From positions 4,216 to 68,215 of the forward strand of contig JBEKOA010000001.1 of the NCBI GenBank assembly GCA_049522255.1: a stretch of DNA of 64,000 nt. Reading direction: 5' to 3'. A model generated the notes under the pieces. That model saw only the letters and a program-made list of their open reading frames with translations, made no database searches and was not told the DNA's origin. This document shows positions 7,400 through 27,254 of this stretch, in pieces. Every line of letters begins with the position of its first letter. Position 1 is the first letter of the stretch. The DNA comes from Terracidiphilus sp. GTDB taxonomy: Bacteria; Acidobacteriota; Terriglobia; Terriglobales; Acidobacteriaceae. The position numbers and the translations under genes are program-made.

Positions 7400-8449
7400 T
7401 TATTTGATTACTGCGCTAACTTGTACCACCAGTTTTCCAAAGTTCTTTCCCTGAAGCAATCCGATGAAGGCATCGGGAGCATGTTCGAGCCCATCCACAA
7501 TATCCTCTCTGCATTTGATCTTTCCGGCAACGAACCATTCCGACATCTGTTTTTGAAAATCGCCGAAGTGCGTCCCGTAGTCGTCAAAGATGATGAATCC
7601 CTGCACACGTATGCGGCGCTTCAGGAAGGTCCCCATCACTTGAGCGGTGCGATCTATCCCTTGAGGAGCCTCACGGTCGTTGTAATGCGCGATCAGACCG
7701 CAGAGGGGAATACGCGCCCGTGTATTGAGAAGGGGAAGAACAGCCTCAAACACCGCTCCCCCTACGTTTTCGAAGTAGATGTCAATTCCCTTAGGGCAGG
7801 CCTTTGCGAGCAGGTCCTTCAACGCGGGATCTTGATGGTCAACGCAAGCATCAAGGCCTAGTTCTTCAACAGCAGATCGGCATTTCCTCTCGCCTCCGGC
7901 GATGCCCACCACATGGCATCCTTTGAGTTTTGCAATCTGGCCGACGACGGATCCAACTGCGCCTGTGGCGGCCGCAACGACAACGGTTTCCCCTGCTACT
8001 GGCTGACCAATCTCCAGCAAGCCCATATAAGCTGTGAACCCAGGCATCCCGAGCACTCCGAGAGCATACGAAGGATGCTTCATCTGTGCGTCGAGACGGA
8101 AGACTCCCTTTCCATAGGAAACGGCATAGTCCTGCCAACCGTTTTGGCTCAGCACCAGGTCGCCGACTGCAAAGTCGGGATGATGAGAGATCTCGACTTG
8201 ACTGACAGTTGATCCGACCATGACATCGCCAATTGCTACAGGAGGTGCGTACGAAGGAGCGTCGCTCATTCTGCCGCGCATGTAGGGGTCAAGCGAGAGG
8301 TAGATAGTTCGGAGAAGAATCTGACCTTGGACCGGGACAGGAATGAGCTGTGCCTCGAACCTGAAATCGTTGGGAGTGGGCGCTCCGATTGGTCTGGAAG
8401 CCAGGACGATGCGCCGATTTTCGGAATTGCTCATTCTGAGAATCTCCAT
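7400..8449 (-). CDS. NADP-dependent oxidoreductase (CurA/YncB, prostaglandin-reductase-like MDR); start may be 8434
   Basis: YLSLDPYMRGRM, LGMPGFTAY, AAATGAVGS, YFENVGG, GKNFGK. Confidence 0.9.
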   Translation of the reverse strand: MEILRMSNSENRRIVLASRPIGAPTPNDFRFEAQLIPVPVQGQILLRTIYLSLDPYMRGRMSDAPSYAPPVAIGDVMVGSTVSQVEISHHPDFAVGDLVLSQNGWQDYAVSYGKGVFRLDAQMKHPSYALGVLGMPGFTAYMGLLEIGQPVAGETVVVAAATGAVGSVVGQIAKLKGCHVVGIAGGERKCRSAVEELGLDACVDHQDPALKDLLAKACPKGIDIYFENVGGAVFEAVLPLLNTRARIPLCGLIAHYNDREAPQGIDRTAQVMGTFLKRRIRVQGFIIFDDYGTHFGDFQKQMSEWFVAGKIKCREDIVDGLEHAPDAFIGLLQGKNFGKLVVQVSAVIK

Positions 8450-8550
8450 TCGACTTTCTTCTTGAATTCCCCGGAAGGGCAGGGGTGTTTCGCGAGTTAC
8501 ATGAACCGCAAGTACTTACTCCTCAGATATCGCCAAAGCTACCACACGAG

Positions 8551-9327
8551 CTAAGTCCTCGACCTGATCAGACTCAGGCAAAACAGAAGAGCTGCAACCA
8601 TGACAATTGTGGGTGCAAGGCTGAGGCTCGGAAATACATAGGTATTGACCAGGAAGCCCATGCCTACAGCCAACACGCTGGCAAGCGAGGAAGCAAGCAG
8701 GAAAGCCCCGATACTATTGGCCATGCGTCGGCCGGTTGCGGCCGGGATGATGATCAAGGCTCCAGCGAGCAACGCCCCCATGAATCGAAGTCCTATTAGC
8801 ACGGTCAGGCTAAAGGCAAGCAGAAAGAGGAGGTTCAGTCGATTGAGTTTGATGCCAGTTGCTGCCGCCAGTTCGGGCGAGAACAAATTCAAGATCAGAG
8901 CGCTCTTGCATCTGAAGATAAAGTAGACAATCAGGACAACGGCCAGAACGCCGATGACAAAGGTGAAGCCAGAAATCCGCTCGAACTTGCCGAAGAATGC
9001 ATCTACAAGATCCTCTTTGGGTGTCAGTGCCGCTCCAATCGCAACTGAGCCTGCGAACACCACACCAATCGCTACCTCAGTGGAGAAGCTCTCATTCTTC
9101 TGCAATTGCCAAATCAGCAGCGTCCCAAGGAAGAGTGTTGCTCCGCCTCCGAGTAAGGGATTGAAGTGCCACAAAAAGGCTAAGCCAAGGCCTGGCAGTG
9201 CAACATGAGAGATGACATCGGCAGCAAGGATCATTCGCTTCATCAGGGCGAAACTCCCCACCAAGCCGGCAGCCACGGCAAACAAGAACGCCAGGATAAT
9301 GCTATAGACGGTTCCGGCCTCAGTCAT
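8551..9327 (-). CDS. Zn/Mn-type metal ABC transporter permease (ZnuB-like)
   Basis: DVISHVALPG motif, ~8 TM helices, GALLAGALIIIPAA. Confidence 0.85.
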   Translation of the reverse strand: MTEAGTVYSIILAFLFAVAAGLVGSFALMKRMILAADVISHVALPGLGLAFLWHFNPLLGGGATLFLGTLLIWQLQKNESFSTEVAIGVVFAGSVAIGAALTPKEDLVDAFFGKFERISGFTFVIGVLAVVLIVYFIFRCKSALILNLFSPELAAATGIKLNRLNLLFLLAFSLTVLIGLRFMGALLAGALIIIPAATGRRMANSIGAFLLASSLASVLAVGMGFLVNTYVFPSLSLAPTIVMVAALLFCLSLIRSRT

Positions 9328-10171
9328 GCTCAGCCGCCTTGCGTGGCGGCTTCAGTTCTTCACCGTGCCGGTGTAGGAAGAACTGCGGCGGTGCTGAGTA
9401 CATGGCTTCGAGTGTCGCAGGGGTCAATACTTTCTGCGGAGGACCGAAGCAGACCGTGTCTTTGCTGACGCATAGTACCTTGTTCGCGGCGCGATAAACA
9501 ATGCTGAGTTCGTGCGAGACCATAAGCACCGTGAGATGCTGTTCACTTTGTAAACGCTCCACTAGCTCGTAGACTCTCTCTTCCGCCAGTTCATCGAGAC
9601 TCGCTGTCGGTTCGTCAAATAGCAGCACATTGGGTTCGCCGAGTAATGCAAATGCGATTAGGACTTTCTGGAACTGCCCGCCAGAAATAACGCCGATGCT
9701 CGCGTTCAAGACTTCCGGTGTCAAACCGACCAAAGTGGCCACAGCATCTATGCTCCTGGGATGCAACTTCAGAACATGCGCCTTTGCAGCGAGTAGATCA
9801 TGAACGCGAATAGGCATTTGACGGTCTGCAGCCACCTTCTGGGGAACGTAGCCTAGTCTCACGCCAGGCGACCAGCGGATCTCGCCTTGGTAGGGCAGCA
9901 AACCAAGTAGCGCCTTTAGCAGAACGGTTTTACCCGCGCCGTTAGGCCCGATGATCGCCACGTTATCACCCGCATCCACGTCGAAACTGAGGTTGTGGAT
10001 GACACTGCGATCATCGAACTGAATCCTCAGCGCCTGCACCGAAAGAATGATGCCGGTCGTCAATATGTTTCCATCCTCTTCTCCGCATCGGTCGGCAACT
10101 GTGCTTCCAACTTCTCCGCGCCAGTCATTGTGCCCAGGGCAAAATGGCGGCTGATCCATTCTCCGCTTCAT
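9320..10171 (-). CDS. Metal ABC transporter ATP-binding protein (ZnuC-like); true start probably near TTG 10063
   Basis: Walker A GPNGAGKT, YVPQ, ISGGQFQK, LLFDEPT, SHEL. Confidence 0.88.
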   Translation of the reverse strand: MKRRMDQPPFCPGHNDWRGEVGSTVADRCGEEDGNILTTGIILSVQALRIQFDDRSVIHNLSFDVDAGDNVAIIGPNGAGKTVLLKALLGLLPYQGEIRWSPGVRLGYVPQKVAADRQMPIRVHDLLAAKAHVLKLHPRSIDAVATLVGLTPEVLNASIGVISGGQFQKVLIAFALLGEPNVLLFDEPTASLDELAEERVYELVERLQSEQHLTVLMVSHELSIVYRAANKVLCVSKDTVCFGPPQKVLTPATLEAMYSAPPQFFLHRHGEELKPPRKAAEHD

Positions 10172-10292
10172 CCTTCACAGCCATCAGTGCTTGGTTGGCC
10201 TGATCCATTAAAAAGATAGTGACGCGCGGTTTAATGTTGGGATCGAGCGCGATGAACTCGCGCGTGTCTAGTCGCGTCGGGTTCGCAACGCT
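10125..10292 (-). pseudogene. C-terminal remnant of a Zn-ADH paralogous to 3713..4705
   Basis: SVANPTRLDTREFIALDPNIKPRVTIFLMDQANQALMAVKDEAENGSAAILP aligns with SVANMTRQDASDFLKIAHDLRIRPNVTEFALDDANKALIAVKEETEHGSAVIVP; no N-terminal ADH sequence upstream. Confidence 0.75.
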
Positions 10293-10693
10293 GGCTGTCG
10301 ACACGCTGTCTATGCGTACCGTCCTCTCCCTGAAGTCTGACACCCGCTCCCTGCTACCGCTGAGCAATCGGACACTACGTTGTGTCTTGCATCGCCCGGG
10401 ACGGGACAATCACCTCTCTTCAGCTTCAACTGAGTGAGGGTGTTCATTGGGATCAATCAGTGGGGCGTTGTGACTTCGCCGGCTCGCCGGTCACAGATGA
10501 CAACTATCCACGAGGCGAACGGCATGCCAGCCAGGCCGATCTCAATTAGTTGTGCAATTAGGAACAACAATCTGAGTCGACAATGCCCAGACTGGATTCT
10601 GTGTTCCTTCGCGGCATGAAGTTGTCCAATTCTCGCCGTTTTTGTCAAAAACGCTCCAAAGCAAGAAGCAATTGATATCCAGGAGGCAACCTC

Positions 10694-10939
10694 ATGAAGG
10701 CTAGTACACGGCAACTCGAAGCGGTACCGGAGACATCTGAAGAGCAAAAGAATAGAGCTGACGTCGCTCACATCCTGGAAGAAGACGAGATCAAGCAAAT
10801 CTACCGGGACAGGAGTGCGGAAGACGCTCTCGACGAAGCAGAGGATAATGAAGCCGCAGTAGAAGAGGAAGTCGATGAGTTGGAAGAAGAAGATGACGTA
10901 GTCCGGGCCGCGCAAGGAAGCCGGAATTTGACTCCCTGA
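10694..10939 (+). CDS. Small, very acidic hypothetical protein
   Basis: AGGAGG RBS; E/D-rich 81 aa. Confidence 0.6.
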   Translation: MKASTRQLEAVPETSEEQKNRADVAHILEEDEIKQIYRDRSAEDALDEAEDNEAAVEEEVDELEEEDDVVRAAQGSRNLTP

Positions 10940-11648: not shown

Positions 11649-11723
11649 GGCGCCGATTATGCCAGTTTTGCCGACTCATCCGGTTTATAACTCCTTTGCC
11701 GTCAACAAATCGTCCTACGGTTG

Positions 11724-11773
11724 CCACCTTCACACGGTGGAAGTCGCAGGTTCGAATCCTGCAGCGCCCACCA
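11724..11773 (+). mobile_element. tRNA-Val(CAC) 3' half = att core of an integrative element (not a complete tRNA)
   Basis: CCACC-TTCACAC-GGTGG anticodon arm, AAGTC, GCAGG-TTCGAAT-CCTGC T-arm, AGCGCCC-A-CCA; the upstream 25 nt lack GGGCGCT and a D-arm. Confidence 0.85.
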
Positions 11774-11776
11774 TAA

Positions 11777-11789
11777 AATCAATAACTTA
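11777..11789 (+). promoter_or_regulatory. IHF-binding consensus site next to the att core
   Basis: AATCAATAACTTA matches WATCAANNNNTTR exactly. Confidence 0.6.
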
Positions 11790-12111
11790 CGTCATTTCCG
11801 CAGAGCGATTTGGTGGCAAATGTTGAGAGCCCTTGCACAGCTCAGCCTGCGTCGGCCCCATTGCATTGACGGAACCGACCACCAGCTTCACACTTTCCGG
11901 CAGATTCGTTGGCCGCGGTCTCGGTCTACCTGCACGCCTGCGCCTCGGTCAGCGAGGCCAGAACTTCCATAGGACGCTCCTGGGACTTCTGCAACTTCAT
12001 TCCTCCGGACTCAAGCCTGAAAGCGCTCACGCCCGATCAGCGATCGCTCAGCCGACCGCCAGAGTCCATGGCGGCCTGAAAGCAAAAGCTGTCCGAAGTA
12101 CCGGGACCTCC

Positions 12112-13395
12112 TCAATCTCCCGCTGATTCTGTGTCATATGCAAGAACAGCCTCAGGGGTCTTCCCTTGACGAGTATTGCGATAGCTGAAAACCTGAGCAC
12201 GGCTCAGGGCAGCGGCTGTCCAGGTGAACTTCCAGTGCACGCCAAACTCCAGCAGTAACGCTACGCTGCCGAGCATCAGTCCGGCAAAACACATCAGGCC
12301 GGTCCCATAGCTTCCGAAGATGTCCTTGAGAGCGCCAAGAGCCGACGGAAGAAAGAATCCTCCCAGGCCGCCCGCTGCGCCAACAATGCCGGTGATCAGT
12401 TCAATGTCTGCCGGGAATCGTTGCGGCGCCATCTGAAAGACAGCTCCATTGCCCATACCCAGCATCCCCATGGAGACAAAGAGCATGGGCACCACGACCA
12501 CAATGGGCGGAAGACCACTGACAACCATGAGACAAACTGATATGCAGGCAAAGAGCGCGAGAAGCAATCTGTAACCTCCAATTCTATCGGCAAGCCATCC
12601 TCCGACAGGGCGCAGAAAACTTCCAGAGAGAACAACGATCGTGGTGAAGTCACCTGCCTGCACCTTAGTCAGGTGGTACTGATCGTGAAAGAAGACTGAG
12701 AGAAAGCTTGCCAAGCCCACAAAACCGCCGAATGTGAGGCTATAGAGGAAGCAGAGCCGCCATGTATCGCCCTGCCCAAGCAGTTGTGCGTATTGTCCCA
12801 AGGTTTTTGGTTTTGATTTCGTCGGACTGTTTTTGGCCAGGATCGAAAAGGCTGCTAGCACGAGCAAAACTGGAAGCAGTGCCAGCCCGAAGACAAAATG
12901 CCAACCAAAATGCTGCGCCAGTCGCGGTCCAAAGAAAGTTGCCAGAAGCGTCCCCGAGTTGCCTGCGCCTGCGATGCCCATGGCCAGTCCCTGATGCTCG
13001 GCGGGATACCATCGGCCCGCAAGGGGAAGTGCGACGGCGAAGCTTGCGCCAGCAATGCCCAGCAAGAATCCAATTGCATAGAACTGCCATAGCGCAGTGG
13101 CATAGTGCCAGCCAAGTACGAGGGGAACCAGCGTAAGTGTGAGACCAGTGAGACCAGCACGGCGGCCGCCGATGCGGTCGGCGAGTAACCCAAGAATGGG
13201 CCGGAAAAAAGAACCGCCCAGCAGTGGAATGGCGGTAAGCAATCCCTTTTGAGTTGCGGTCAAATGCATTTGATCAGCAATGAAAGGGGTCATGGGTCCA
13301 AAGAGAACCCACACCATAAAGCTGACGTCGAAGTAGAGAAATGCGGAAACAAGCGTGGGCAAGTGGCCGCTGGAAGCGAAAGATTTCTTGTCCAT
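12112..13395 (-). CDS. narK: NarK/NRT2-family nitrate/nitrite MFS transporter
   Basis: GSFFRPILG, GIAGASFAV, GAGNSG, TFGGFVG, GSFLRPVGGWLADR, GMGNGAVFQ nitrate signatures. Confidence 0.9.
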   Translation of the reverse strand: MDKKSFASSGHLPTLVSAFLYFDVSFMVWVLFGPMTPFIADQMHLTATQKGLLTAIPLLGGSFFRPILGLLADRIGGRRAGLTGLTLTLVPLVLGWHYATALWQFYAIGFLLGIAGASFAVALPLAGRWYPAEHQGLAMGIAGAGNSGTLLATFFGPRLAQHFGWHFVFGLALLPVLLVLAAFSILAKNSPTKSKPKTLGQYAQLLGQGDTWRLCFLYSLTFGGFVGLASFLSVFFHDQYHLTKVQAGDFTTIVVLSGSFLRPVGGWLADRIGGYRLLLALFACISVCLMVVSGLPPIVVVVPMLFVSMGMLGMGNGAVFQMAPQRFPADIELITGIVGAAGGLGGFFLPSALGALKDIFGSYGTGLMCFAGLMLGSVALLLEFGVHWKFTWTAAALSRAQVFSYRNTRQGKTPEAVLAYDTESAGD

Positions 13396-13436
13396 GTGCG
13401 ATCCTCCTGGGGCATTGATTTTGCGAATGAACTAGG

Positions 13437-15650
13437 TTATGAAGTCGGCGCTGCTTTGATGGGAGTGCGTTCGACGCGCACTGCGCATTGCTTGAAGTTG
13501 GGTTCGCGCGAAATGGGATCGAACGCGCTTTGCGTAATCTGATTGGCGTTGCTCTCGACAAAGTGAAAAGGAAGAAAGACCTGTCCTGGAGCAACGATCT
13601 CGGTAATGCGCAACTCAACCTTGCTGACCCGGCCACGCGCAGAGAGCACATCCACGCGATCGTGGGGACGCAAGCCCAGACGCTTCGCGTCCACCGGATT
13701 CATCTCCAGCCATGCGCGCGGAGAAAGGCGCTGCAAAATGTCGATGCCTCCGGTCTTGGTGCGGGTATGCCAGTGTTCTACGGTGCGCCCGGTATTGAGC
13801 ACAAAGGGATATTCTTTGTTGGGTTGCTCTGGAAAAGGAGCCCAGACGGTGGGAATCAGCCTGGCGCGTCCGTCTTCGGTCTGATACTGGCCATCGGTGT
13901 ATAGTCGCCGCGGCACAGTCGGGTCCAAAAAGGCTCCTTGCGGGTAGGGCCACTGGATTCCACCGTTGGACTCGATGGCATCGTAAGTCATGCCGGAGTA
14001 GTCGCAGAGCCTTCCTGCCGAGACGCGGCGCCACTCTTCAAATGCGTCGGTAGGCGTATTCCAGCCGGGGAATAGCTCTTCGCGGCAACCCAATCGTTCG
14101 GCGACAGCAAGAAAGATTTCGAAGTCGCTGCGTGCCTCGGCGGGTGGAGCGACAGCGGCATTGGCTTTGCTGGCGCGGCGTTCTGAGTTGGTGTAGGTCC
14201 CTTCTTTTTCTCCCCAAATGGCAGCAGGCAATACAAGATTGGCTAACTCGGTGGTGGGGGTTGGATGAAATCCATCCTGCACCACAAGAAAGTCCAGATT
14301 ACTCAGCGCATGTTTAAGTACATCGATATTTGGAAAGGAGACCAGGGGATTGGTGCCAATGATCCATAGCGCGCGAATCCTTCCCGCGACAGCAGCTTCG
14401 ATAATGTCAGGATAAGCAAGGCCACGTTGGGTGGGAATGCGCTCGATGGGAATGTTCCATAGGCGAGCCAGTTCTTTGCGGTCCACTTCAGATTCAAATT
14501 TCCGATACCCTGGGAGACCCGAAGCAAAGCCAGCCTCACGAGTGCCCATGGCGTTGCATTGTCCAGTGATGGAGAAAGGCGAAGCCCCGGCGCGCCCGAT
14601 GTTACCAGTAATCAGGGCAAGGTTGTTGATGGCATTAACGGTCTCGGTGCCCTTGGTGCTGTGATTCACCCCCATCGTCCATCCGATGAATGCAGCCTTG
14701 GCATTGCCGTAAAGTAGTGCCGTCCTATGAATCAGTTCCGGCGTGAGACCTGTGATCTTGGCTGCATGCTCCAGCGTGCAGGATTCGAGTGACGCGCGCA
14801 ATTCTTCAAATCCCGTAGTGTAATGCTCGACATATTGCTTGTCATAGAGATCCTCGTTGATGATGATGCGTAGCATGGCATTGATAAGTGCGAGGTCCGA
14901 TCGCGGCTTCAGGGGGAGATATACATCGGCCATCATCGCCGTTTTGGTAACGCGCGGATCGGCCACTATCATCGTTTTGCCGCGATTGCCTTCCAGGCGC
15001 GTACAGAGAATCGGATGATTCTCCGCAACATTGGCTCCGATGAGCAGAATGACATCCGCGGTCTCCAGATCGGCATAGGCGCCGGGCGGTCCATCGCTTC
15101 CAAAAGAACGCTTGTAGCCGGAGACTGCGGTGGACATACAAAGCGTGGTGTTACCGTCATAGTTGCGCGTGCCCAATCCCAGTTGCACCAGCTTGCCCAG
15201 CGCATAGAACTCTTCCGTAAGCAACTGGCCGGTACTGATGACGCCAACCGAATCAGGGCCATATTTGATTTGCGCGGCGCGAAAGCGCTCCACCATAGTT
15301 TCCACCGCTTCGTCCCAACCAACGCGTACTAGCTCATTGTTTTTTCGCAGCAACGGATACCTGGCGCGATCCTTAGCCTCGATTGTGTAGTGCTCTGACA
15401 AGCCTTTTGGACAAAGCTTGCCAAGGTTGACCGGGTGATCGCGATCCCCGCGAACGCTGACAACTTTTCCCTTGCTTACACCTAACTCCATTCCGCAACC
15501 TACAGAGCAGTATCCGCAGGTGCTTTTCACCCACGTTTCCGCATGTTTGCGGGTCGAGGTGAAGCCGAGCACCGGGTCAATCCCGTAACTGTATTTAGCG
15601 GAGAGGTTGTCCAGCCCGCTTTTGCGTAATACCCAGTCCAGCACACTCAT
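13437..15650 (-). CDS. nasA: Cytoplasmic Mo-bisPGD nitrate reductase catalytic subunit (NasA/NarB-type)
   Basis: CGYCSVGC..LCPKG [4Fe-4S]; NTTLCM Mo-Cys; GQCNAMGTRE; EKEGTYTNSERR; ATGA overlap with the upstream gene fixes the start at 15650; no Tat motif. Confidence 0.88.
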   Translation of the reverse strand: MSVLDWVLRKSGLDNLSAKYSYGIDPVLGFTSTRKHAETWVKSTCGYCSVGCGMELGVSKGKVVSVRGDRDHPVNLGKLCPKGLSEHYTIEAKDRARYPLLRKNNELVRVGWDEAVETMVERFRAAQIKYGPDSVGVISTGQLLTEEFYALGKLVQLGLGTRNYDGNTTLCMSTAVSGYKRSFGSDGPPGAYADLETADVILLIGANVAENHPILCTRLEGNRGKTMIVADPRVTKTAMMADVYLPLKPRSDLALINAMLRIIINEDLYDKQYVEHYTTGFEELRASLESCTLEHAAKITGLTPELIHRTALLYGNAKAAFIGWTMGVNHSTKGTETVNAINNLALITGNIGRAGASPFSITGQCNAMGTREAGFASGLPGYRKFESEVDRKELARLWNIPIERIPTQRGLAYPDIIEAAVAGRIRALWIIGTNPLVSFPNIDVLKHALSNLDFLVVQDGFHPTPTTELANLVLPAAIWGEKEGTYTNSERRASKANAAVAPPAEARSDFEIFLAVAERLGCREELFPGWNTPTDAFEEWRRVSAGRLCDYSGMTYDAIESNGGIQWPYPQGAFLDPTVPRRLYTDGQYQTEDGRARLIPTVWAPFPEQPNKEYPFVLNTGRTVEHWHTRTKTGGIDILQRLSPRAWLEMNPVDAKRLGLRPHDRVDVLSARGRVSKVELRITEIVAPGQVFLPFHFVESNANQITQSAFDPISREPNFKQCAVRVERTPIKAAPTS

Positions 15651-17284
15651 GCAGACTCCATGGAGAGATATTCGGTTGCAATGTTGCTGGGAACGACACT
15701 GACAAAGAAGAGATAGCGGCTCACGAATTCGCCGGCAATCAGAAGAAGTGCAACGGGAACAGCCATCCACCGAGTCTGCGCAAAAGGTACAAGCAACAGG
15801 CCCGCGCTGAGCAAAAGGAGGCGCAGCATCAAGAGATTCGAGAGTACGGTGAAAAGCAGGATGAAGACTCCGCGACGCTCATGCGCAGAGGAGCGGGCCA
15901 GCCAAACCATTTTCATGCCGGCGGCAAGAATCGTCGCGATACCGGTAACGATTACCGCCCGTTGCGTAAACGTGGCTGTTCCACTGAGAATGTTGGCGCC
16001 CGCAGAGCCGAGCAGCATGGCGGTCAGAAAGAACTCCACAATAGTGAATGGGGAGTTCCACCCTGGGCGTCCCGGCGCCAAATACAATCGTGCGCTGCAG
16101 CCGACGCCGGCTATGCCAAAGATGACAGTCAATCCACCTAAGACTGTAACTGTATGAGCAGGCAGCATCGCATTGATCTCGCGAAGAAGCAGAACGAGAG
16201 AGGTAGTGAGTTTTTGGAAGACGGCCATGTGTCTAAGATCGAAGCCACCGGGCAAGGTGATCCACAGCGCCGCGGAATACGCAGCCGCGGCGTTGGCAAA
16301 GAGAGTAAACATCAAGACTTCCCGGCTGAGCCATGATCGACGCCACATCTTCAAAGCGCGCACGGCATGAATCGGTCGCCCCAGATGCAGCGTTGAGGCT
16401 CCGAGCGCTACGGTTGCGATCATCAGCGCAACGAGTGCAGCCACGCAGTGCAGGTGAGCACCAAAGATCTGCATCAGCCATATGGAAGAAAATGCGCCTA
16501 CCGAAAGCTGTGTCAGAACGGTCATTACCACCAGCGGCCAATGAGCATGCTCGGGACGAAGACGGTTGAGATCCACTTTGGCGGAATCGCGTGGCATGCG
16601 ATTGGGCAGGGTGATACGCGTTGTGGATAGACTGTCGTCTGCCGAGGGCATCCCTGGCGCGTTTGCGTCGGTGCGATATTGTTCACGCCATTCCGCAGTG
16701 CGCACAATTTCAATGCGAATGGCGCCTTCCGGACAGGCAGAGACGCAGGCTGGATTTTGCCCCTCGGTCAGACGCCCGTAGCACATATCGCATTTACCGA
16801 CGACGCCGCGCTCCGGGTTGTACTGGGGCACGCCGTAAGAACAGTTCCAGGTGCAATATTGGCAACCAATGCAGATATCCGCGTTGTGGCGCACGATTCC
16901 AGTGGGGCCGTCTTTTGAGTAAGCGTCGACCGGGCAGCCCGTCATGCAAGTCGGCTCCAGACAGTGATTGCAGCCGATAGAGAGATAGTTGCGCTGGGTA
17001 TCCGGATAAGTGCCGCCTTCGATTTCGCCGACCCGCCGCCACAGAATGTCGGCAGGATTTCCGTTCTGCTCGTTGCAAGCCACCACGCAACACTTGCAGC
17101 CGATGCACTTGGTCATGTCGAAATGAAAACGATATTGTTCGCCCGGTCCCGGTGGAGGCGGAAGAGGAACATCGACTCCGCTGCCGCACAACTGAACCAA
17201 CCCCTGCCCGGAATTTTGGGCAGAGGTCGTCAGGTTGAAGGCATCGTCGCCGGCCTTGACCCGTTCGAGTAAGGGAAGTTCCAT
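15647..17284 (-). CDS. Fused 4x[4Fe-4S] DmsB/NrfC-type subunit and DmsC/YnfH membrane anchor
   Basis: CIGCKCCVVAC, CNHC..TC..GCP, CIGCQYCTWNC, CDMC..PACVSACP, then ~8 TM with HWPLV.MTVLTQ and S.LHLGRP..A.RA...WRRSWLSRE; GGAG RBS before ATG 17284. Confidence 0.85.
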   Translation of the reverse strand: MELPLLERVKAGDDAFNLTTSAQNSGQGLVQLCGSGVDVPLPPPPGPGEQYRFHFDMTKCIGCKCCVVACNEQNGNPADILWRRVGEIEGGTYPDTQRNYLSIGCNHCLEPTCMTGCPVDAYSKDGPTGIVRHNADICIGCQYCTWNCSYGVPQYNPERGVVGKCDMCYGRLTEGQNPACVSACPEGAIRIEIVRTAEWREQYRTDANAPGMPSADDSLSTTRITLPNRMPRDSAKVDLNRLRPEHAHWPLVVMTVLTQLSVGAFSSIWLMQIFGAHLHCVAALVALMIATVALGASTLHLGRPIHAVRALKMWRRSWLSREVLMFTLFANAAAAYSAALWITLPGGFDLRHMAVFQKLTTSLVLLLREINAMLPAHTVTVLGGLTVIFGIAGVGCSARLYLAPGRPGWNSPFTIVEFFLTAMLLGSAGANILSGTATFTQRAVIVTGIATILAAGMKMVWLARSSAHERRGVFILLFTVLSNLLMLRLLLLSAGLLLVPFAQTRWMAVPVALLLIAGEFVSRYLFFVSVVPSNIATEYLSMESA

Positions 17285-17931
17285 CGATAGCTCCATCGTG
17301 TGCGGCACGCGCAATGTGCGAAGAGGACTGGTGTCAGGGACACGCCGCCCTCGACCGATGACGGTTGCTCTCAGACGTTCGAGCCCCTGTAATTTGTTGG
17401 TGGTTTGGCGATCAGGCCAGGCTCTTCGCGGAGCCAACTGGAAATCACTTCAGCTTGGGGAAGCATCCGGCACACTGGGCCAGACCTTCGCGGTGTGAGC
17501 TCTCTCAAAAGAGTCTCATTCCGCGTGGAGTGATTGCGTTGAGCATAGCGTCAAATAAGAATCAATGCAAGTAGATTCTGGTTTTGAACAATCTGTGCAG
17601 AAATCTCATTCAATATGCGTGGAAAAGCACCTTCCACTCTTGTATTCCCGATTGGATGCGTGTTAAAGCGAAGTCGGAGAGTTTCCCCATTCACCTTGCC
17701 CCGGGCATTCTTCGGGAGGTGATGATTGGGTCATTGCTTCTCTTCAGGCTTCTATCGAGTGTGACCAACGGACTATGTTTTTGCCGATCTTTAATCATGC
17801 GATACTGGAGTTGAAGATTGCTTCGAGTCCGCTGGATTCATGCGGAAATGGAGCGACGCAACTTTGCGCTGCCCGCTCTTCGTATCTTCCATCTGTGTCC
17901 ATTTCTTCTAACCCAGCACACGGAGAGACCC

Positions 17932-19611
17932 ATGCCAGGGGCGAATTTTGAAGGTCTACGGGTTCTGAGTCTGGAAGCACGCCGCGCGAATGAAGTTGCC
18001 AAGCTGATTCACACCTATGGTGGCGAGCCGCTTACGGCGCCGGCGATGCGGGAGATTCCTCTCGAAGAAAATCATCCGGTGATTGAATTCGCTCAGGCCC
18101 TGATGCGGGGAGCCTATGATCTGGTGATCTTCACAACCGGGGTGGGCGTCCGTTCTCTGGTCAAGATCGTCTCCGAGCGTCTGGATCGCGAGCAGTTTCT
18201 TGCTGCCCTGCGCGGCGTGAAGATTGCCGCCCGCGGTCCCAAGTCCTCCAGCGCGTTGCGGGAGTTGCAGATCCCCATCACGGTAGTTTCTCCAGAGCCA
18301 TTCACGTGGCGTGCTCTGATGCCGGCGCTTGAAGAGAAGCTGGGCCCAGAGATGGATGGCATGAACATCGCCGTGCAGGAGTACGGAACATCAAATCCAG
18401 AGTTGCTGACAGCGCTGGCAGAGAAGAGCATTTCAATTACCCGTCTTCTTGTCTATCAATGGGCATTGCCGGAAGACATTCAGCCCTTACGTGAAGCCGT
18501 GCTTGCTCTTGCGCATGGACACGTCGATATCGTGCTCTTCATGAATGCCGGGCAGGTCATGCATCTGTTTCTCATGGCCGAACGCATGGGCTACACAGAG
18601 GCGCTGCATGAAGGACTCCGCTCTACGCTGATCGCTTCGATTGGTCCCAGCACGACCGAAGGAATGTCTGCCTACGGACTGCACCCAGATTTTGAGCCAA
18701 CGCAATCGAAGATGGGCTTCCTGATCAACGAGCTGGCGCAACATGGGCGGTCTCTTTTGAATAAAAAACGCTCCGATGCAGCGTTACATGTTACCAGCAC
18801 TCCACCACCTCCCGTCAGTCCGCTGCTGCAGAGCGGCGCCCAGCCTATTGCAACGGTAGAGCCTGCCATCCCCTCGCCAGTCGATTTTCTGCACGAGATA
18901 GGCAGCCGCATGGCAGCCTCAGACCCGCTGCACACGGTGCTTGATCGCATAGTTGACTTTGCCTGTACAGTCATCAACTGCGATTCTTGTTTTGTCTACG
19001 TGCTGGAAGACAATCAGCTGGTTTTGCGCGCATCCAAAACCCCCCATGCGGATCTGGTGGACCATCTGGGAATCTGGCTTGGCCAAGGCATTACCGGGTG
19101 GGTTGGATGGCATCGCGAGCCGGTTGCGATCTCAGCGAATGCACTGCAGGATCCACGCTTCAAGCGCTTTCCAAATGTGCCGGAAGATGCGTTTGAGGCG
19201 TTTCTTTCCGTTCCAATTCTTTGTCGCGGGAAGCTGGTCGGAGTCATTAATTTGCAGCATCGCAGGCCCTATCAGCATGCAGAAAATGAAGTCCGGCTGC
19301 TGACGACGATCGGCCATCTGGTGGGCGCGGAGTTGGAGCGGGCGCGCCTGGAAACCGAAAACGTCCAACTCTCAGATCGCCTGGAATCGCGCAAACACAT
19401 TGAACGCGCCAAGGGAGTATTGCAGCGCGATTTCGCCCTGGATGAAGAGGCTGCCTACAAGGCCATGCAGCGGGAGAGCCGTCAGCGTCGCAAATCGATG
19501 CGCGAGATTGCCGAGGCAATTATTCTCAACGAAGATCTGCGCAAGAGCCGTTTGGGAGAAGCAAATAGACCGGCAGCGCATGAAGATGGTATAAGGAAAG
19601 CCAAGAATTGA
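17932..19611 (+). CDS. HemD(uroporphyrinogen-III synthase)-like, GAF and ANTAR three-domain fusion
   Basis: N-terminal HemD pattern (IFTTGVGV, ARGPK, VQEYG, SIGPST); GAF (DSCFVYV..LVLRAS..GITGWV..AFLSVPI..GVINL); ANTAR (RKHIERAKGVL..EEAAY..MQRESR); GGAG RBS. Confidence 0.88.
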   Translation: MPGANFEGLRVLSLEARRANEVAKLIHTYGGEPLTAPAMREIPLEENHPVIEFAQALMRGAYDLVIFTTGVGVRSLVKIVSERLDREQFLAALRGVKIAARGPKSSSALRELQIPITVVSPEPFTWRALMPALEEKLGPEMDGMNIAVQEYGTSNPELLTALAEKSISITRLLVYQWALPEDIQPLREAVLALAHGHVDIVLFMNAGQVMHLFLMAERMGYTEALHEGLRSTLIASIGPSTTEGMSAYGLHPDFEPTQSKMGFLINELAQHGRSLLNKKRSDAALHVTSTPPPPVSPLLQSGAQPIATVEPAIPSPVDFLHEIGSRMAASDPLHTVLDRIVDFACTVINCDSCFVYVLEDNQLVLRASKTPHADLVDHLGIWLGQGITGWVGWHREPVAISANALQDPRFKRFPNVPEDAFEAFLSVPILCRGKLVGVINLQHRRPYQHAENEVRLLTTIGHLVGAELERARLETENVQLSDRLESRKHIERAKGVLQRDFALDEEAAYKAMQRESRQRRKSMREIAEAIILNEDLRKSRLGEANRPAAHEDGIRKAKN

Positions 19612-19622
19612 TCGCAACTTGC

Positions 19623-19718
19623 TTGTGATCTCTATCGAGTTGCGCTAGTCTAACCCTAAGAGTGAGACAAGGCTGTCTCCTCGGGTTCTCTCTTCCCCGC
19701 ACCACGCCGTGCCTGGGG
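19623..19718 (+). promoter_or_regulatory. Putative sigma70 promoter and candidate ANTAR-type tandem hairpins in the nirA leader
   Basis: TTGTGA-N17-TAGTCT (19623-19651); GAGAC-AAGGCT-GTCTC (19664-19679); GCAC-CACGCC-GTGC (19699-19712). Confidence 0.5.
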
Positions 19719-19886
19719 CCTTCAGACCACAATCCCTTTACTCCATGCTCCGTGATGAGCCTTGAATTCTCCGCATTGTTTGCGGCATTCATCGGGTCTC
19801 AACGCCGCTTTGCGCACGCGCACACAAGCGCTTTCAACGGGCAGTCCGGTCCTCCTCATGGATGGACTACTGGAAGGAGTGATGGC

Positions 19887-21665
19887 ATGGAAACGCTGGA
19901 TACCCTCAATTCCCAGGATTTCACGGCAGTACAGAAGGAGTATCTTCTCGGCATCTTTTCGACTGCCACGCATCATGGCTTGCGTCCTTTCGCGGGCCAC
20001 ACCGCGACCGGGCTGCTGACCAACGATTCAACTCTTGGCTCGATCAATCTGGCGGAACCGCAAGAGGAGACCTACCACGGAACGCCAGTCTCCGATCTCT
20101 GCCGCGAAGAGCGATGGAAGTATGAGCAGAATCCTCTTGATATCTGGGACAAGCTGCTGGCTCATGCAGATGAAAATCGAACACCGGCAGCGGATGATCT
20201 TTTCCGCTTCAAATTTCACGGGCTATTTTACGTAGCTCCCGCGCAGGACTCCTTCATGCTCAGGCTGCGCGTCCCAGGCGGCATTCTTACCGCTCACCAA
20301 ATGCGCGGCCTGGCGGCGATGGCCTCCGATTGGGGATCGGGCCGCGTGGACATTACGACCCGTGCCAACCTGCAGATTCGCGAATTCCAGCCGAAAGAAA
20401 TTGTTCGCGTGCTCAACAAGCTGCAATCGCTTGGGCTTACCTCGCGCGGTTCAGGCGCAGACAATATTCGTAACATCACGGCTTCGCCGATCACCGGACT
20501 CGATCCCACTGAACTCTGCGATGTGGCGCCGCTGGCCGATGCGCTTCACCATTACATTCTGAATAGCCGCGATCTGTATGGGTTGCCGCGCAAATTCAAC
20601 GTAGCCTTCGACAATGGAGGCGCCATCAGCGTCGTTGCCGATACCAACGATATTGGCTTTGTTGCTGTCCGCGTTGGTGAAGGGCGCAGCCTTCCCACGG
20701 GCGTTTATTTTCGAGTATTGTTGTGCGGCATTACTGGGCACAAACAGTTCGCTACCGATTGCGGCTTGCTGTTACGCGCCGATCAGACCGTGGCTGTTGC
20801 CGCTGCCATGATACGTGTCTTCAGCGAGAACGGCGACCGAACGGATCGCAAAAAAGCGCGCCTGAAATACCTGGTGGATCGCTGGGGCGTCGACAAGTTT
20901 CTGGATGAGACTGAAATGCGTTTGTCCTTCCCGCTGATCCGCGTTCCGATCAATGAGTGCGAGCCGCGCCTGCCGATTGATCGCGCCGGCCACATCGGTG
21001 TTCACGCGCAACGTCAAGACGATCTGCACTATATTGGGATCTCCGTGCCGGTTGGCCGTCTTCCTGCCGCGCAGATGCTGGCCCTGGCTGACATAGCCAG
21101 CAGTTACGGCAGCGGGGAGTTGCGACTCACGGTCTGGCAGAACCTGTTGATCCCAAACATTCCAACCGCTCATCTGGATGCGACGTTGGCTGCGCTTCAA
21201 GCTGTCGGTCTTGATTGCACGGCAGGGACTGTTCTGCGAGGCACTGTTGCCTGCACAGGAAATCGCGGCTGCAAGTATGCATCGACCGACACCAAGACAC
21301 ACGCGGTTGAATTGGCCAGTCTGCTTGATGCACGATTCAAGATTGAACAGCCGGTCAATCTTCATGTGACCGGTTGTCCCCACTCCTGCGCACAACATTA
21401 CATCGGCGATATCGGCCTGCTCGGCATGAAGGTTGGCGGCGCCGAAGGCTATCAAGTGGTAATCGGTGGAGGCTCGGATCTGGACAAAGGCCTGGCGCGC
21501 GAGCTAATCCCTGCTATCGCCTATAGTGATTTGCCCCCCATGATGGAACGGCTCTTTGCCGCCTATATCGAACAGCGGAAGAGAGATGAGTCCTTCCTGG
21601 ATTTCAGCCGTAGACACAGCACTGCGGAGTTGCAATCGTTTTGCGCGGCAAAGGAGCGGAGATAG
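19887..21665 (+). CDS. nirA: Siroheme-[4Fe-4S] nitrite reductase, NirA family
   Basis: FKFHGLF, MLRLRVPGG, ITTRANLQIR, GADNIRN, LPRKFN, ACTG..GC, TGCPHSCAQH; GAAGGAG RBS. Confidence 0.88.
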   Translation: METLDTLNSQDFTAVQKEYLLGIFSTATHHGLRPFAGHTATGLLTNDSTLGSINLAEPQEETYHGTPVSDLCREERWKYEQNPLDIWDKLLAHADENRTPAADDLFRFKFHGLFYVAPAQDSFMLRLRVPGGILTAHQMRGLAAMASDWGSGRVDITTRANLQIREFQPKEIVRVLNKLQSLGLTSRGSGADNIRNITASPITGLDPTELCDVAPLADALHHYILNSRDLYGLPRKFNVAFDNGGAISVVADTNDIGFVAVRVGEGRSLPTGVYFRVLLCGITGHKQFATDCGLLLRADQTVAVAAAMIRVFSENGDRTDRKKARLKYLVDRWGVDKFLDETEMRLSFPLIRVPINECEPRLPIDRAGHIGVHAQRQDDLHYIGISVPVGRLPAAQMLALADIASSYGSGELRLTVWQNLLIPNIPTAHLDATLAALQAVGLDCTAGTVLRGTVACTGNRGCKYASTDTKTHAVELASLLDARFKIEQPVNLHVTGCPHSCAQHYIGDIGLLGMKVGGAEGYQVVIGGGSDLDKGLARELIPAIAYSDLPPMMERLFAAYIEQRKRDESFLDFSRRHSTAELQSFCAAKERR

Positions 21666-21667
21666 CT

Positions 21668-23440
21668 ATGTCCACCAACCCTCCCTATATTCCCGATAAT
21701 GCTCCCTTCACACCAGAACAGCGAGCGTGGCTCAACGGCTTTCTTGCCGGACTGTTTGCAGGCGATGGTCAGCAGGCTGCCGCTGCGGAGTCCAAACCAT
21801 CGCATCGCATTGCGATTCTTTATGCCTCGCAATCCGGCACTGCCGAAGGGCTGGCGCGCAGGCTGGCCAAGGAACTTAAGGCTCAGGGCCATCAGCCAGT
21901 GGTCTCAACATTGGTCGGCTATTCGCCGGCCGCGCTGGCGTCGGAGAAATATGCACTGATCTTTGCCAGCACTTATGGCGATGGTGAAGCTCCCGATGGC
22001 GTTCAGCCATTTTTTGAAGAACTCTGTCTTGAGCACTTTCCTCGCTTCGAGGGATTGTCTTACTCCGTCTTCGCGCTCGGAGATCGCCACTACGAAAACT
22101 TCTGCAAGTTTGGCAACGATCTTGACAGCAAACTGGCTGCATTGGGTGCCAATCGCCTGGCCAATCGTGTCGATTGCGATGTGGATGTCGATGAGCCGTT
22201 AGTGCAATGGAAAGCGGAAGTTCTTCCGCGGCTTAATGAATCGGCGCCAGCACTCAAGCTTTCAAGGGCCGCTTCAACCGCCGTGGCAGTGGCGGAAAGG
22301 CCAGCGCCAAATGCCTCGTTTACGCGCGATAATCCGGTCTTTGCTCCGCTGATTCACAAAAAAGATCTTACGCACAAGACCTCCAGCAAGACGACACTTC
22401 ATCTGGCATTCTCCATTGAGGGAACGGGTATTCAGTATGAATCCGGCGACGCCTGCGGTGTTCTGCCCGCAAACGATTGCAACCTGGTCGCCGAGATCCT
22501 GCAAGCTCTACGCTTCAACGGCAACGAGCGGGTTCAATGCGGTAAGGCAGAAACCATTCCTCTTCACAATGCGTTAACTCACCATCTGCAAATCACCCGC
22601 CTGAATCGCAAGATGGTCACTGAATATGCAAACCTGGGCAAGTGCGCGCTGCTCTCTTCGCTGCTGGAACCCAGGCAGCAGCCGGAACTGGACAGATACC
22701 TCTACGGCCGAGGACTGATTGACCTGTTGATCGAGTATCCTGGCGTGGTGCAGAGCCCGGAAGAACTTGTGGCAATGCTGCCCAAACTTACGCCGCGTCT
22801 CTATTCCATATCCTCCAGCCCCATTGCTCATGCCGGGCAAATTCATACCACAGTGGCCGTGGTGCGCTACAGCGCGCACAACCGTGAGCGCGGAGGAGTG
22901 TGCTCGACGCTCTTTGCCGATCGCGCTTCCGTCTCTGACCGTTTGCCTCTTTACATTCAACCGAACAAGCGGTTCAAATTGCCAAATGATTCCGACGCCC
23001 CCATGATCATGATTGGACCCGGCACGGGCATTGCGCCGTTCCGTGGCTTTCTGCACGAGCGCCGCGCACTGGGGGCCAAGGGAAAAAACTGGCTCTTCTT
23101 TGGTGAGCGCAGCGCAACAACCGATTACCTTTATCGGGACGAGTTGGAGGCCATGCAGGCCGATGGGCATCTGACCCGCTTGGATACTGCTTTCTCGCGC
23201 GATCAGGAAGATAAGATCTACGTGCAGGATCGTATGCTGGAGCAGGCTCCGTTGTTTTGGAGTTGGTTGCAGGATGGGGCTAGTGTTTACGTCTGCGGTG
23301 ACGCGTCACGAATGGCGAAGGATGTGCATGGAGCCTTGCAAACCATTGTTCAAACGCAAGGGGGAATGCCGGCGATTGCTGCGGAGGAATATGTGGAAAC
23401 CCTGAAAGAGCAGCATCGCTACCATCGGGATGTGTACTGA
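21668..23440 (+). CDS. CysJ-like diflavin (FMN/FAD/NADPH) reductase
   Basis: YASQSGTAE, STYGDGEAP, ALGD..Y..FC, PRLYSISSS, MIGPGTGIAPFRGF, YVQD, YVCGDA, YHRDVY. Confidence 0.9.
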   Translation: MSTNPPYIPDNAPFTPEQRAWLNGFLAGLFAGDGQQAAAAESKPSHRIAILYASQSGTAEGLARRLAKELKAQGHQPVVSTLVGYSPAALASEKYALIFASTYGDGEAPDGVQPFFEELCLEHFPRFEGLSYSVFALGDRHYENFCKFGNDLDSKLAALGANRLANRVDCDVDVDEPLVQWKAEVLPRLNESAPALKLSRAASTAVAVAERPAPNASFTRDNPVFAPLIHKKDLTHKTSSKTTLHLAFSIEGTGIQYESGDACGVLPANDCNLVAEILQALRFNGNERVQCGKAETIPLHNALTHHLQITRLNRKMVTEYANLGKCALLSSLLEPRQQPELDRYLYGRGLIDLLIEYPGVVQSPEELVAMLPKLTPRLYSISSSPIAHAGQIHTTVAVVRYSAHNRERGGVCSTLFADRASVSDRLPLYIQPNKRFKLPNDSDAPMIMIGPGTGIAPFRGFLHERRALGAKGKNWLFFGERSATTDYLYRDELEAMQADGHLTRLDTAFSRDQEDKIYVQDRMLEQAPLFWSWLQDGASVYVCGDASRMAKDVHGALQTIVQTQGGMPAIAAEEYVETLKEQHRYHRDVY

Positions 23441-23500
23441 GCCGCAATGGCATCTTTCTTGTATCTGTCATTCCTATTAAAATCAAAACCGGGATGCAGG

Positions 23501-24004
23501 ATGAGAGTCTGCAAGCTATACATTTCGCCAGGGCATAATTTCTTTGGCCACCACGAACAGCCGCCCGGAGAGTATCCGCTGATCGAGTGTGCGGAGCTCC
23601 GTTGTATGGCCGGTCGCGGAGTTGAAGGAGACCGCTTCTTCGACTACAAGGACAACTACAAGGGACAGATCACTTTCTTCTCTTCCGAGGTCTTCGAGGA
23701 ACTCTGTAATCTTCTCGGCGTGCACGACAAGTCTCCGGGGGCAACCCGTCGCAACGTCATCACCGCTGGAGTGGATCTGAATTCCCTGATCGAAAGAGAG
23801 TTTGACGTACAAGGCGTGCGTTTTTCAGGTGTAGCTGAGTGCAGCCCCTGTTATTGGATGGACAAAGCCATCGCACCCGGCGCCGAGGAATTCCTGAAAG
23901 GCCGGGGTGGGTTGCGCGCGCGGATTCTAACGGATGGGGTCCTCGTAGTCGAAGATGAAATTCTCTATCGCCATTCTGCAGATTCTCAGTGTCCCCTACT
24001 TTAA
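23501..24004 (+). CDS. MOSC-domain molybdoprotein (YiiM/mARC-like)
   Basis: GRGVEGDRF, QITFF, TRRNVI..GVDLN, CSPC, GRGGLRARIL..G. Confidence 0.85.
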   Translation: MRVCKLYISPGHNFFGHHEQPPGEYPLIECAELRCMAGRGVEGDRFFDYKDNYKGQITFFSSEVFEELCNLLGVHDKSPGATRRNVITAGVDLNSLIEREFDVQGVRFSGVAECSPCYWMDKAIAPGAEEFLKGRGGLRARILTDGVLVVEDEILYRHSADSQCPLL

Positions 24005-24212: not shown

Positions 24213-24380
24213 GAAAGGAGATTGACTGCCGATTTAGACTTGGTGAGTGCGTCCTTCCAGTCGTGTCCTGTTGAGGCACACCGGCCGTTAGGCCTGATAC
24301 AGTTGCCCTTGTGTTGCTTTGTCGGGAGATCTGAACCGCAAGAAGGCTTACACATCAAGTTCTCCCCAGGGGGCGTGTCC

Positions 24381-26547: not shown

Positions 26548-26631
26548 TCAGGCATTTCCATTGGCGCTTACTCGCATTCAACTTGCAGCCTGGAGATGTT
26601 CGACGCTGGAGCGTCGTGACCAGGCAGAAAC

Positions 26632-27174: not shown

Positions 27175-27192
27175 CGGCGATTCTTCAATTGA

Positions 27193-27208
27193 AGTGACCA
27201 AAGTCGCT
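27193..27208. promoter_or_regulatory. Copy 2 of the 16-bp operator (AGTGAC-CAAA-GTCGCT)
   Basis: Centred -41.5 from a TACGCT -10 candidate at 27230, upstream of ric. Confidence 0.65.
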
Positions 27209-27254
27209 GTGGTTCATAATCCGAAGTCCTACGCTGTGGTTAAAGGAGATCGAA

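Follow-up and report, generated by a model that had tools for sequence, protein, structure and literature searches.

A stretch of 64,000 nucleotides from a Terracidiphilus sp. genome (assembly GCA_049522255.1, contig JBEKOA010000001.1, positions 4,216 to 68,215 of the forward strand), hereafter referred to as the window, carries three consecutive minus-strand genes that encode, in this order, a fusion of an iron-sulfur (Fe-S) protein with a membrane anchor (FUS), a molybdoenzyme catalytic subunit (CAT), and a NarK-type transporter. Together, FUS and CAT very likely constitute a membrane-anchored cytoplasmic nitrate reductase of the kind of gene cluster that serves nitrate assimilation. The full model further includes quinol as the electron donor, so that the enzyme would act as a (mena)quinol:nitrate oxidoreductase for assimilation, and we give this model a probability of roughly 0.65. 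An earlier, sequence-only reading of the same DNA had proposed a cytoplasmic NasA-type enzyme wired to the quinone pool by a fused DmsB-DmsC subunit; the analysis presented here follows up that proposal.

FUS and CAT had been read as translationally coupled, with NarK behind them, and the gene arrangement bears this out. In the letters around 15647-15650 (GCATGAGTG), the TGA stop codon of FUS overlaps the ATG of CAT, and CAT is followed after a gap of 41 nt by a gene of the major facilitator superfamily (MFS; 13395..12112), whose best NCBIfam match is TIGR00886, at 276.8 bits and thus below the cut-off of 311.7. For FUS, an alternative ATG at 17296 would yield a protein of 549 residues, and a public-database protein of this length is 100% identical. 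The open reading frames (ORFs) of all three genes are long, have very strong profile matches, and lie in conserved synteny (see below), and they are therefore not chance features.

The N-terminal part of FUS resembles the four-cluster electron-transfer subunit DmsB, with a Pfam Fer4_11 match at residues 99-191 (E = 1.7e-20), and its C-terminal part matches the membrane anchor DmsC (PF04976; E = 2.8e-14; score 53.7 bits, cut-off 22.3). The best NCBIfam match of the protein is DMSO_dmsB, at 156 bits and below the equivalog cut-off of 214. Four cluster motifs supply 16 cysteines (C60/63/66/70, C105/108/113/117, C138/141/144/148, and C165/168/180/184), all of which are invariant in each of the 32 diverse full-length members, 30-45% identical to the window protein, that make up our family alignment. 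A profile built from this alignment and searched against concatenated E. coli DmsB and DmsC matches the pair as a single colinear domain with 275 bits. The fused DmsB-DmsC subunit of the sequence-only reading is thus a true colinear fusion, and the residues of the quinol site are retained in it. In DmsC, this site comprises S62, H65, S82, and E87, and replacement of H65 blocks quinol oxidation (PMC8076601). The four residues align with S297, H300, S317, and E322 of FUS, and the last three of these are invariant across the family. The AlphaFold2 (AF2) model of FUS, computed from the family alignment (pLDDT 85, pTM 0.86), has eight membrane helices. Foldseek searches relate its N-terminal half to FdnH, ArrB, and PsrB and its C-terminal half to ActC and PsrC, with a TM-score of 0.74 for PsrC (2vpw_C). 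As a separate observation, most members of the family carry a conserved N-terminal segment before the first cluster (..QQxLTAVExFSxxH..YxxLIP.., alignment columns 1-130); it belongs to a subclade of Planctomycetota, Verrucomicrobiota, and Myxococcota, and the subclade of the window protein is devoid of it.

An Fe-S domain already loaded with its clusters can cross the membrane by the twin-arginine (Tat) pathway only. Neither FUS nor CAT carries an export signal, and no twin-arginine signal is found in the fusion proteins. We assessed the topology of the anchor by counting lysines and arginines (K + R) in its loops on the Fe-S side and on the opposite side. In the FUS family, the Fe-S-side loops contain 8.4 such residues on average versus 2.7 on the trans side, and the Fe-S side is the higher one in 32 of 32 proteins; the counts for the window protein are 7 versus 4. 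The distribution is reversed in DmsC of E. coli, where the Fe-S side is the periplasmic one (2 on the Fe-S side versus 6). Under the positive-inside rule, this bias indicates that the FUS anchor is inverted relative to DmsC. Combined with the missing signals, it places the Fe-S domain, the quinol site, and CAT, by prediction, all in the cytoplasm, where the sequence-only reading had located the enzyme. A precedent for this geometry is SoeABC, which is thought to face the N-side by means of an inverted NrfD/DmsC-type anchor (PMC8076601).

The catalytic subunit contains the Pfam domains Molybdop_Fe4S4, Molybdopterin, and Molydop_binding. No domain is detected beyond residue 723, which means that CAT has no BFD/2Fe-2S tail. 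The 44 residues before its first cluster cysteine contain neither a twin-arginine motif nor a hydrophobic stretch, and both are likewise missing before the N-terminal [4Fe-4S] motif (FS0) in all of about 75 CAT homologues. These homologues share a conserved extension of about 40 residues ahead of FS0 (window 15519-15650, minus strand), which has a different consensus in each of two subclades (loci L001-L080) and may be a docking element for the Fe-S domain.

Two motifs of CAT are of the nitrate reductase type (N167-TTLCMSTAVSGY and S360-ITGQCNAMGTRE, the latter reading S360-ITGQCNAMG). Its Cys-Met pair and its TGQxNAMG motif match those of NasA and NapA (LCMSSAV; TGQPNAMG or TGQPSACG). By enzyme, the second motif reads TGQPNAMG in NasA, TGQPSACG in NapA, RGQNNVQG in formate dehydrogenases (Fdh), and TGQCNAMG in all FUS-linked CATs. 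A tblastn search with CAT against annotated plasmids and chromids ranks assimilatory nitrate reductases first, at 36-41% identity (Hymenobacter 41%, Burkholderia 38%, Sinorhizobium pSymB 37.8%, and Ralstonia nasA 36-37%), with FdhF (31-34%) and NapA (about 30%) more distant. Both the Nas/Nap signatures and the lack of a Tat signal and of a BFD domain, which the sequence-only reading had attributed to CAT, therefore withstand closer inspection.

Profile scores taken by themselves would leave room for another reading, in which CAT acts on a different substrate, such as chlorate or another oxyanion, or oxidizes formate towards quinone, and the nitrate context is coincidental. The best single NCBIfam score of CAT is that for Fdh-alpha (580 bits, cut-off 666), followed by those for haloarchaeal NasA (531, cut-off 1000), NasC (527, cut-off 1100), and NapA (417-430, cut-offs 904-930); all of these, and hence every nitrate reductase equivalog score, lie below the cut-offs, and the top PDB match is an F420-dependent formate dehydrogenase. 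However, formate dehydrogenases carry Cys/Sec-His and RGQNNVQG where CAT has Cys171-Met172 and TGQCNAMG, and the replacement is found in every member of the group. On the strength of these active-site motifs, we rejected the formate dehydrogenase identity that the top NCBIfam and PDB scores had raised. With nitrate reductases as the nearest annotated relatives, and with nitrate transporters and nitrite reductases as neighbors, we consider a substrate other than nitrate very improbable.

A phylogeny of the DMSO reductase family had been suggested as a check on the sequence-only reading. We carried it out as a neighbor-joining tree, in which all FUS-linked CATs form one group of two subclades beside classical NasA/NasC, with NapA outside. 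The tree is crude, and its reference set is small. One sequence in this tree, from a Halostella plasmid and labelled NasA, has Fdh-type motifs (CH, RGQNNVQG) and falls near FdhF, and we rejected it as a Nas reference. Two further observations concern catalytic subunits elsewhere. In a Verrucomicrobiae metagenome-assembled genome (MAG; L064), two tandem CAT paralogues (8825-10795 and 11807-13921) stand behind a single fusion gene. On a Hymenobacter volaticus plasmid (L082, 6980-12026), a classical Nas cluster encodes a 1171-residue nitrate reductase adjoining the gene of a 496-residue 'rubredoxin', which represents another non-standard electron-input arrangement, in this case from Bacteroidota.

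The pairing of the two subunits is not peculiar to the window. An exhaustive search retrieved 818 clusters of FUS relatives at 50% identity (E<=1e-30). About 5,000 clusters at 90% identity reach E<=1e-10 in another search, and among one-genome-per-species representatives there are at least 580 FUS loci. The best 80 of these loci (L001-L080), to which our locus-level survey applies, are distributed over Acidobacteriota (with a Terracidiphilus MAG at 90% identity), Planctomycetota, Myxococcota (complete Sorangium genomes among them), Verrucomicrobiota, Acidimicrobiales (Acidimicrobiia), Poribacteria, and Omnitrophota; a Lacipirellulaceae locus (L079) is among them. Cultured carriers of the module include Lacipirellula parvula PX69, Sorangium cellulosum So0157-2, Novipirellula rosea JCM 17759, and Pedosphaera parvula Ellin514. 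In all 69 loci for which at least 2.5 kb of downstream sequence is available, FUS is immediately followed by a CAT homologue in the same orientation. Assimilatory genes occur within 7 kb in 42 of the 43 loci with context on both sides; these neighbors are NirA (14 loci), NirB (NirBD; 29 loci), and/or NarK or NrtBC. FUS splits into the same two subclades as CAT (CNEQNG/CNHC versus CHSLNG/CHHC). Given this shared split and the TGQ-C-NAMG signature of all the CATs, the two genes behave like one co-inherited module. The synteny survey that had been proposed on the basis of the window alone thus finds the arrangement preserved across several phyla.

These results can be assembled into a model of electron flow. 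NarK would import nitrate. Quinol, most likely menaquinol, would be oxidized on the cytoplasmic face of the eight-helix domain, at its DmsC-type site (S297/H300/S317/E322), and the covalently attached DmsB-type domain would relay the electrons by way of its four [4Fe-4S] clusters to FS0 of the NasA-like CAT. From there they would reach the molybdenum-bis(pyranopterin guanine dinucleotide) (Mo-bisPGD) center with its Cys171 ligand, where nitrate would be reduced to nitrite. The divergently encoded NirA, served by a CysJ-like NADPH flavoprotein, would then convert nitrite to ammonium. Menaquinol is the likely donor because the phyla carrying FUS-CAT use menaquinone and DmsABC of E. coli is specific for menaquinol. 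Because proton release and proton uptake would both occur on one side of the membrane, the reaction should build no proton gradient and would be non-electrogenic. We infer docking of the Fe-S domain on CAT, nitrate as the substrate, and an assimilatory role; quinol as the donor is likewise a deduction from the sequences.

Several points weigh against this model. The topology is predicted from charge bias and missing signals rather than measured, and quinol dependence is deduced from DmsC homology and four conserved residues. With all equivalog scores below their cut-offs, function does not transfer automatically from the named families, and the CAT tree is a crude neighbor-joining one with few reference sequences. 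The metatranscriptome contigs that match these genes (see below) are short and have a depth of 2-6, and DNA carry-over is possible. Lacipirellula parvula PX69, whose genome contains this operon, tests positive for 'dissimilatory nitrate reduction' on an API strip, so that the role is perhaps not purely assimilatory. Finally, electrons could in principle come from an enzyme encoded close by, a CysJ-like NADPH reductase in the window or NirB elsewhere.

This last point leads to an alternative in which the four-cluster domain would act as a tethered ferredoxin: a soluble NAD(P)H-linked donor (CysJ-like or NirB) or ferredoxin would feed it, and the DmsC-like domain would be a passive anchor without quinone chemistry. 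Classical NasC receives its electrons from a NirB-type subunit, and CAT has the domain layout of the ferredoxin-dependent NarB. The CysJ-like diflavin reductase gene of the window is 4 kb away, and most loci have either NirA plus CysJ or NirBD alongside the module. However, the CysJ-like gene accompanies NirA in just 11 of the 43 loci and is missing from most, always standing beside NirA and never beside FUS-CAT, whereas FUS is present in all of them. An eight-helix NrfD-type domain would also be a costly mere tether, and the invariance of H300, S317, and E322 at 30-45% sequence identity is hard to square with a passive anchor. We therefore regard a soluble donor with a passive anchor as unlikely and retain quinol as the favored donor.

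A second alternative accepts quinol oxidation and places the enzyme in a different physiological role. It would be mainly a dissimilatory or redox-balancing nitrate reductase that serves as a low-oxygen electron sink and is possibly ion-coupled via its NrfD-type domain, with assimilation as a by-product; this is compatible with our model and not exclusive of it. The window derives from water-logged peat, and nitrosative-stress-type genes (ScdA/RIC, hemerythrin, and a multiheme cytochrome) lie nearby. Strain PX69 is positive for nitrate reduction in the API 20NE test, and its describers treated the operon under anaerobic respiration and named the catalytic subunit NapA (PMC6995999). NrfD-like subunits have been proposed as ion conductors, but the ion half-channels are poorly conserved in the DmsC/SoeC subgroup (PMC8076601). 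A redox-loop proton gradient would not be expected either, as quinol site and active site would share one side of the membrane. The assimilatory-type neighbors in 42 of 43 loci (siroheme-dependent NirA or NirBD, NarK/NrtBC), where nar, nap, or nrf accessory genes were not searched for, also speak against a mainly dissimilatory enzyme, and the ANTAR domain found in the window points the same way, regulators of this type being typical of assimilatory nas operons. We doubt, on balance, that dissimilation is the principal function.

A broader proposal joins the two roles. FUS-CAT might represent a fourth class of nitrate reductase, a menaquinol:nitrate enzyme that is the main assimilatory one in soil and aquatic phyla relying on menaquinone (Acidobacteriota, Planctomycetota, Verrucomicrobiota, and Myxococcota) and doubles as an electron sink at low oxygen. 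We put this forward tentatively. If the sink role were true, it would account for nitrate-to-nitrite phenotypes in organisms without Nar and Nap.

The features of the operon and of the divergently transcribed genes next to it are collected in Table 1.

Table 1. Positions in the window of the FUS-CAT-NarK operon, its functional motifs, and the divergent nitrite reductase operon
Feature	Position	Strand	Basis
FUS, DmsB-type 4x[4Fe-4S] plus DmsC/NrfD-type eight-helix anchor, 545 aa	15647..17284	-	Pfam/NCBIfam, DmsB+DmsC profile, AF2, Foldseek
Four-cluster ferredoxin domain of FUS, residues 50-195, 16 cluster Cys	16700..17137	-	translation verified
DmsC/NrfD-like membrane domain of FUS, residues 248-531, 8 transmembrane (TM) helices	15692..16543	-	hydropathy, AF2, PF04976, PsrC match
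Predicted quinol-site loop STLHLGRPIHAVRALKMWRRSWLSRE (S297, H300, S317, E322) of FUS, TM2-TM3, Fe-S side (predicted cytoplasmic)	16319..16396	-	DmsC alignment
ATGA stop/start overlap of FUS and CAT	15647..15650	-	sequence read directly
CAT, Mo-bisPGD subunit, 737 aa, Nas-like, without Tat signal and without BFD	13437..15650	-	Pfam/NCBIfam, PDB alignments, relatives, neighbor-joining tree
FS0 [4Fe-4S] motif of CAT, C45-x2-C48-x3-C52 ... C80	15402..15518	-	Molybdop_Fe4S4; kept in all homologues; coordinates verified
CAT active-site motif NTTLCMSTAVSGY; Cys171 (15138-15140) as predicted Mo ligand, followed by Met172	15114..15152	-	NapA Cys-Met alignment
CAT motif SITGQCNAMGTRE, nitrate reductase type; Cys in place of Pro is the clade signature	14535..14573	-	motif comparison
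NarK-family nitrate/nitrite MFS transporter, 427 aa, third gene of the operon	12112..13395	-	TIGR00886
Intergenic control region separating the FUS-CAT-NarK operon from the divergent regulator/nirA operon	17285..17817	.	position only
HemD (uroporphyrinogen-III synthase)+GAF+ANTAR fusion, start codon uncertain	17818..19611	+	Pfam HEM4, GAF, ANTAR
NirA-family siroheme nitrite/sulfite reductase	19662..21665	+	PRK09567, 807 bits (cut-off 523); Pfam NIR_SIR
CysJ-like diflavin NADPH reductase	21641..23440	+	TIGR01931, 601 bits; PRK06214, 466 bits (cut-off 432); flavodoxin, FAD, and NAD domains

Scanning the leader (17200-17900) for an ANTAR-target or other RNA element gave no Rfam match at E<=1, and counts of promoter and terminator consensus sequences in 11900-17900 did not exceed those in shuffled sequence. 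The HemD-GAF-ANTAR protein is a candidate for both an antiterminator-type regulator and an enzyme of the siroheme branch; its orthologue in L001 is 91% identical and occupies the equivalent position. Further along the same strand, the CysJ-like reductase is probably the electron donor of NirA. Its gene is followed by one for a MOSC-domain protein (23447-24004, plus strand), a copy of which, 63% identical, lies downstream of CAT in a Chthoniobacter MAG (L061, 11702-12154), so that this protein may belong to the system. Beside the assimilation genes, a group on the plus strand (24222-27974) encodes a multiheme cytochrome c (24222-25616), a hemerythrin (26632-27174), and an iron-center repair protein of the ScdA/RIC type (27255-27974), and looks like a nitrosative-stress set.

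On the other side of the operon, the small ORFs past NarK (11721-12126 and 10125-10409) have no Pfam match. Apparently unrelated minus-strand genes occupy 7400-10171 and encode an NADPH-dependent reductase resembling CurA (7400-8449, 570 bits) and a metal ABC transporter resembling ZnuBC (8551-10171). Manual translation also revealed the C-terminal remnant of a decayed transposase (rve/IS3-like; ARTSIGRSWDFCNFIPPDSSLKALTPDQ) at about 11950-12050 on the plus strand. A 32-nt core of this remnant (12009-12040) is common to several unrelated metatranscriptome contigs with different flanks.

Many metagenomes from peat, wetland, and soil contain contigs nearly identical to the window. Contigs from peat and wetland metatranscriptomes contain parts of FUS at 99-100% identity, as well as parts of CAT, of NirA, and of the CysJ-like gene. 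Evidence for expression of these four genes in peat and wetland is therefore weak but positive.

Textbooks distinguish three classes of bacterial nitrate reductase (Nar, Nap, and Nas), and within Nas they separate NADH-dependent from ferredoxin/flavodoxin-dependent enzymes. If our model is true, the quinone pool would join these two as a third source of electrons for a Nas-type enzyme. Nitrate use would be cheaper, as electrons at the level of quinol would be spent and not those of NAD(P)H or ferredoxin, and nitrogen assimilation would be linked directly to how reduced the respiratory chain is. Genes that are binned in metagenomes as ferredoxin-dependent 'narB/nasA' would then be tied to the respiratory chain, and a second inverted NrfD/DmsC-type anchor would be known after that of SoeABC. 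With the module in at least 580 species representatives, whose phyla are dominant in soils and peat and on aquatic particles, the identity of the donor bears on metagenome counts of 'nasA/narB'; it also bears on models of nitrate retention in low-oxygen soils. The arrangement contradicts a published generalization, according to which canonical four-cluster and anchor subunits were never recruited in the Nas/Nap/Fdh branch.

Among the known systems, the classical Nas enzymes (NasA/NasC/NarB of Klebsiella, Paracoccus, Bacillus, and cyanobacteria) are closest to CAT: they are cytoplasmic Mo-bisPGD proteins with an N-terminal [4Fe-4S] cluster, Cys-Met, and TGQxNAMG, and their gene clusters contain a nitrate transporter and a siroheme nitrite reductase. 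Family phylogenies treat Nas as cytoplasmic assimilatory enzymes (PMC7331816, PMC10100899), and the branch that contains them is not associated with canonical four-cluster or anchor subunits (PMC7331816). Only two classes of donor are named for assimilatory nitrate reductases in a recent survey of the kind, the NADH/flavoprotein type and ferredoxin/flavodoxin (mycobacterial paper PMC7816997). Classical Nas receives electrons from NADH via flavoprotein, BFD, or Rieske components, or from soluble ferredoxin or flavodoxin, whereas FUS-CAT has an obligate fused DmsB-DmsC partner and no BFD, although a soluble ferredoxin may also fit the sequence of CAT as its donor. CAT further differs from classical Nas in forming a separate clade, in having TGQ-C-NAMG and not TGQ-P-NAMG, and in its N-terminal extension of about 40 residues.

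For the fusion protein, the natural comparison is E. coli DmsBC, with which it shares the colinear order of DmsB followed by DmsC, the same 16 cysteines, the eight helices of a heme-free anchor, and the residues of the quinol site. In E. coli DmsABC, however, B and C are separate proteins that face the periplasm and serve a Tat-exported DmsA, whereas FUS is a single polypeptide with inverted charge and a Nas-type partner. SoeABC of Allochromatium vinosum and Aquifex aeolicus is a predicted likeness, being a three-module molybdoenzyme for which peripheral subunits on the N-side and a cytoplasmic quinone site are proposed (PMC8076601). It differs in oxidizing sulfite and reducing quinone, in belonging to another catalytic branch, and in having separate B and C subunits, a comparison drawn from published descriptions.

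Two other nitrate reductases resemble the module in other ways. The respiratory NarGHI is likewise quinol-driven, with a cytoplasmic active site and a four-cluster electron-transfer subunit. NarG uses an aspartate ligand, and NarI is a diheme cytochrome b that oxidizes quinol on the periplasmic side and builds a proton gradient. By contrast, the predicted molybdenum ligand of CAT is a cysteine, and the narG profile matches CAT with only 33 bits (cut-off 1084) and the narH profile reaches 45 bits (cut-off 524). In the Nap system, NapA is about 30% identical to CAT and has the same Cys-Met pair, and the four-cluster NapG and the membrane protein NapH provide a link to quinol. NapA is exported by the Tat pathway, however, whereas CAT has no Tat signal, is predicted to be cytoplasmic, and stands in an assimilatory context. 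Among the window genes scanned, none matched NapB, NapC, NapD, or NapH.

The closest published counterpart is the operon of Lacipirellula parvula PX69, where the same arrangement is described in one sentence of a genome annotation (PMC6995999). That paper calls the catalytic subunit NapA and does not go into topology, the quinone site, distribution, or biochemistry. A full-text literature search returned this sentence as the sole mention and no biochemical study of the arrangement, and the published work on Limisphaera, Methylacidiphilum, Acididesulfobacillus, and Mycobacterium smegmatis does not describe the module. A prior biochemical description, which would have overturned the sequence-only reading, was therefore not encountered. 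That reading had also set the enzyme apart from Nar, Nap, and classical Nas, and CAT indeed fails the defining features of Nar, of Nap, and of the classical NADH- or BFD-linked Nas, while it keeps the catalytic core and the genomic context of Nas. FUS-CAT combines this core with an inverted, fused DmsBC module and is not a categorically new machine.

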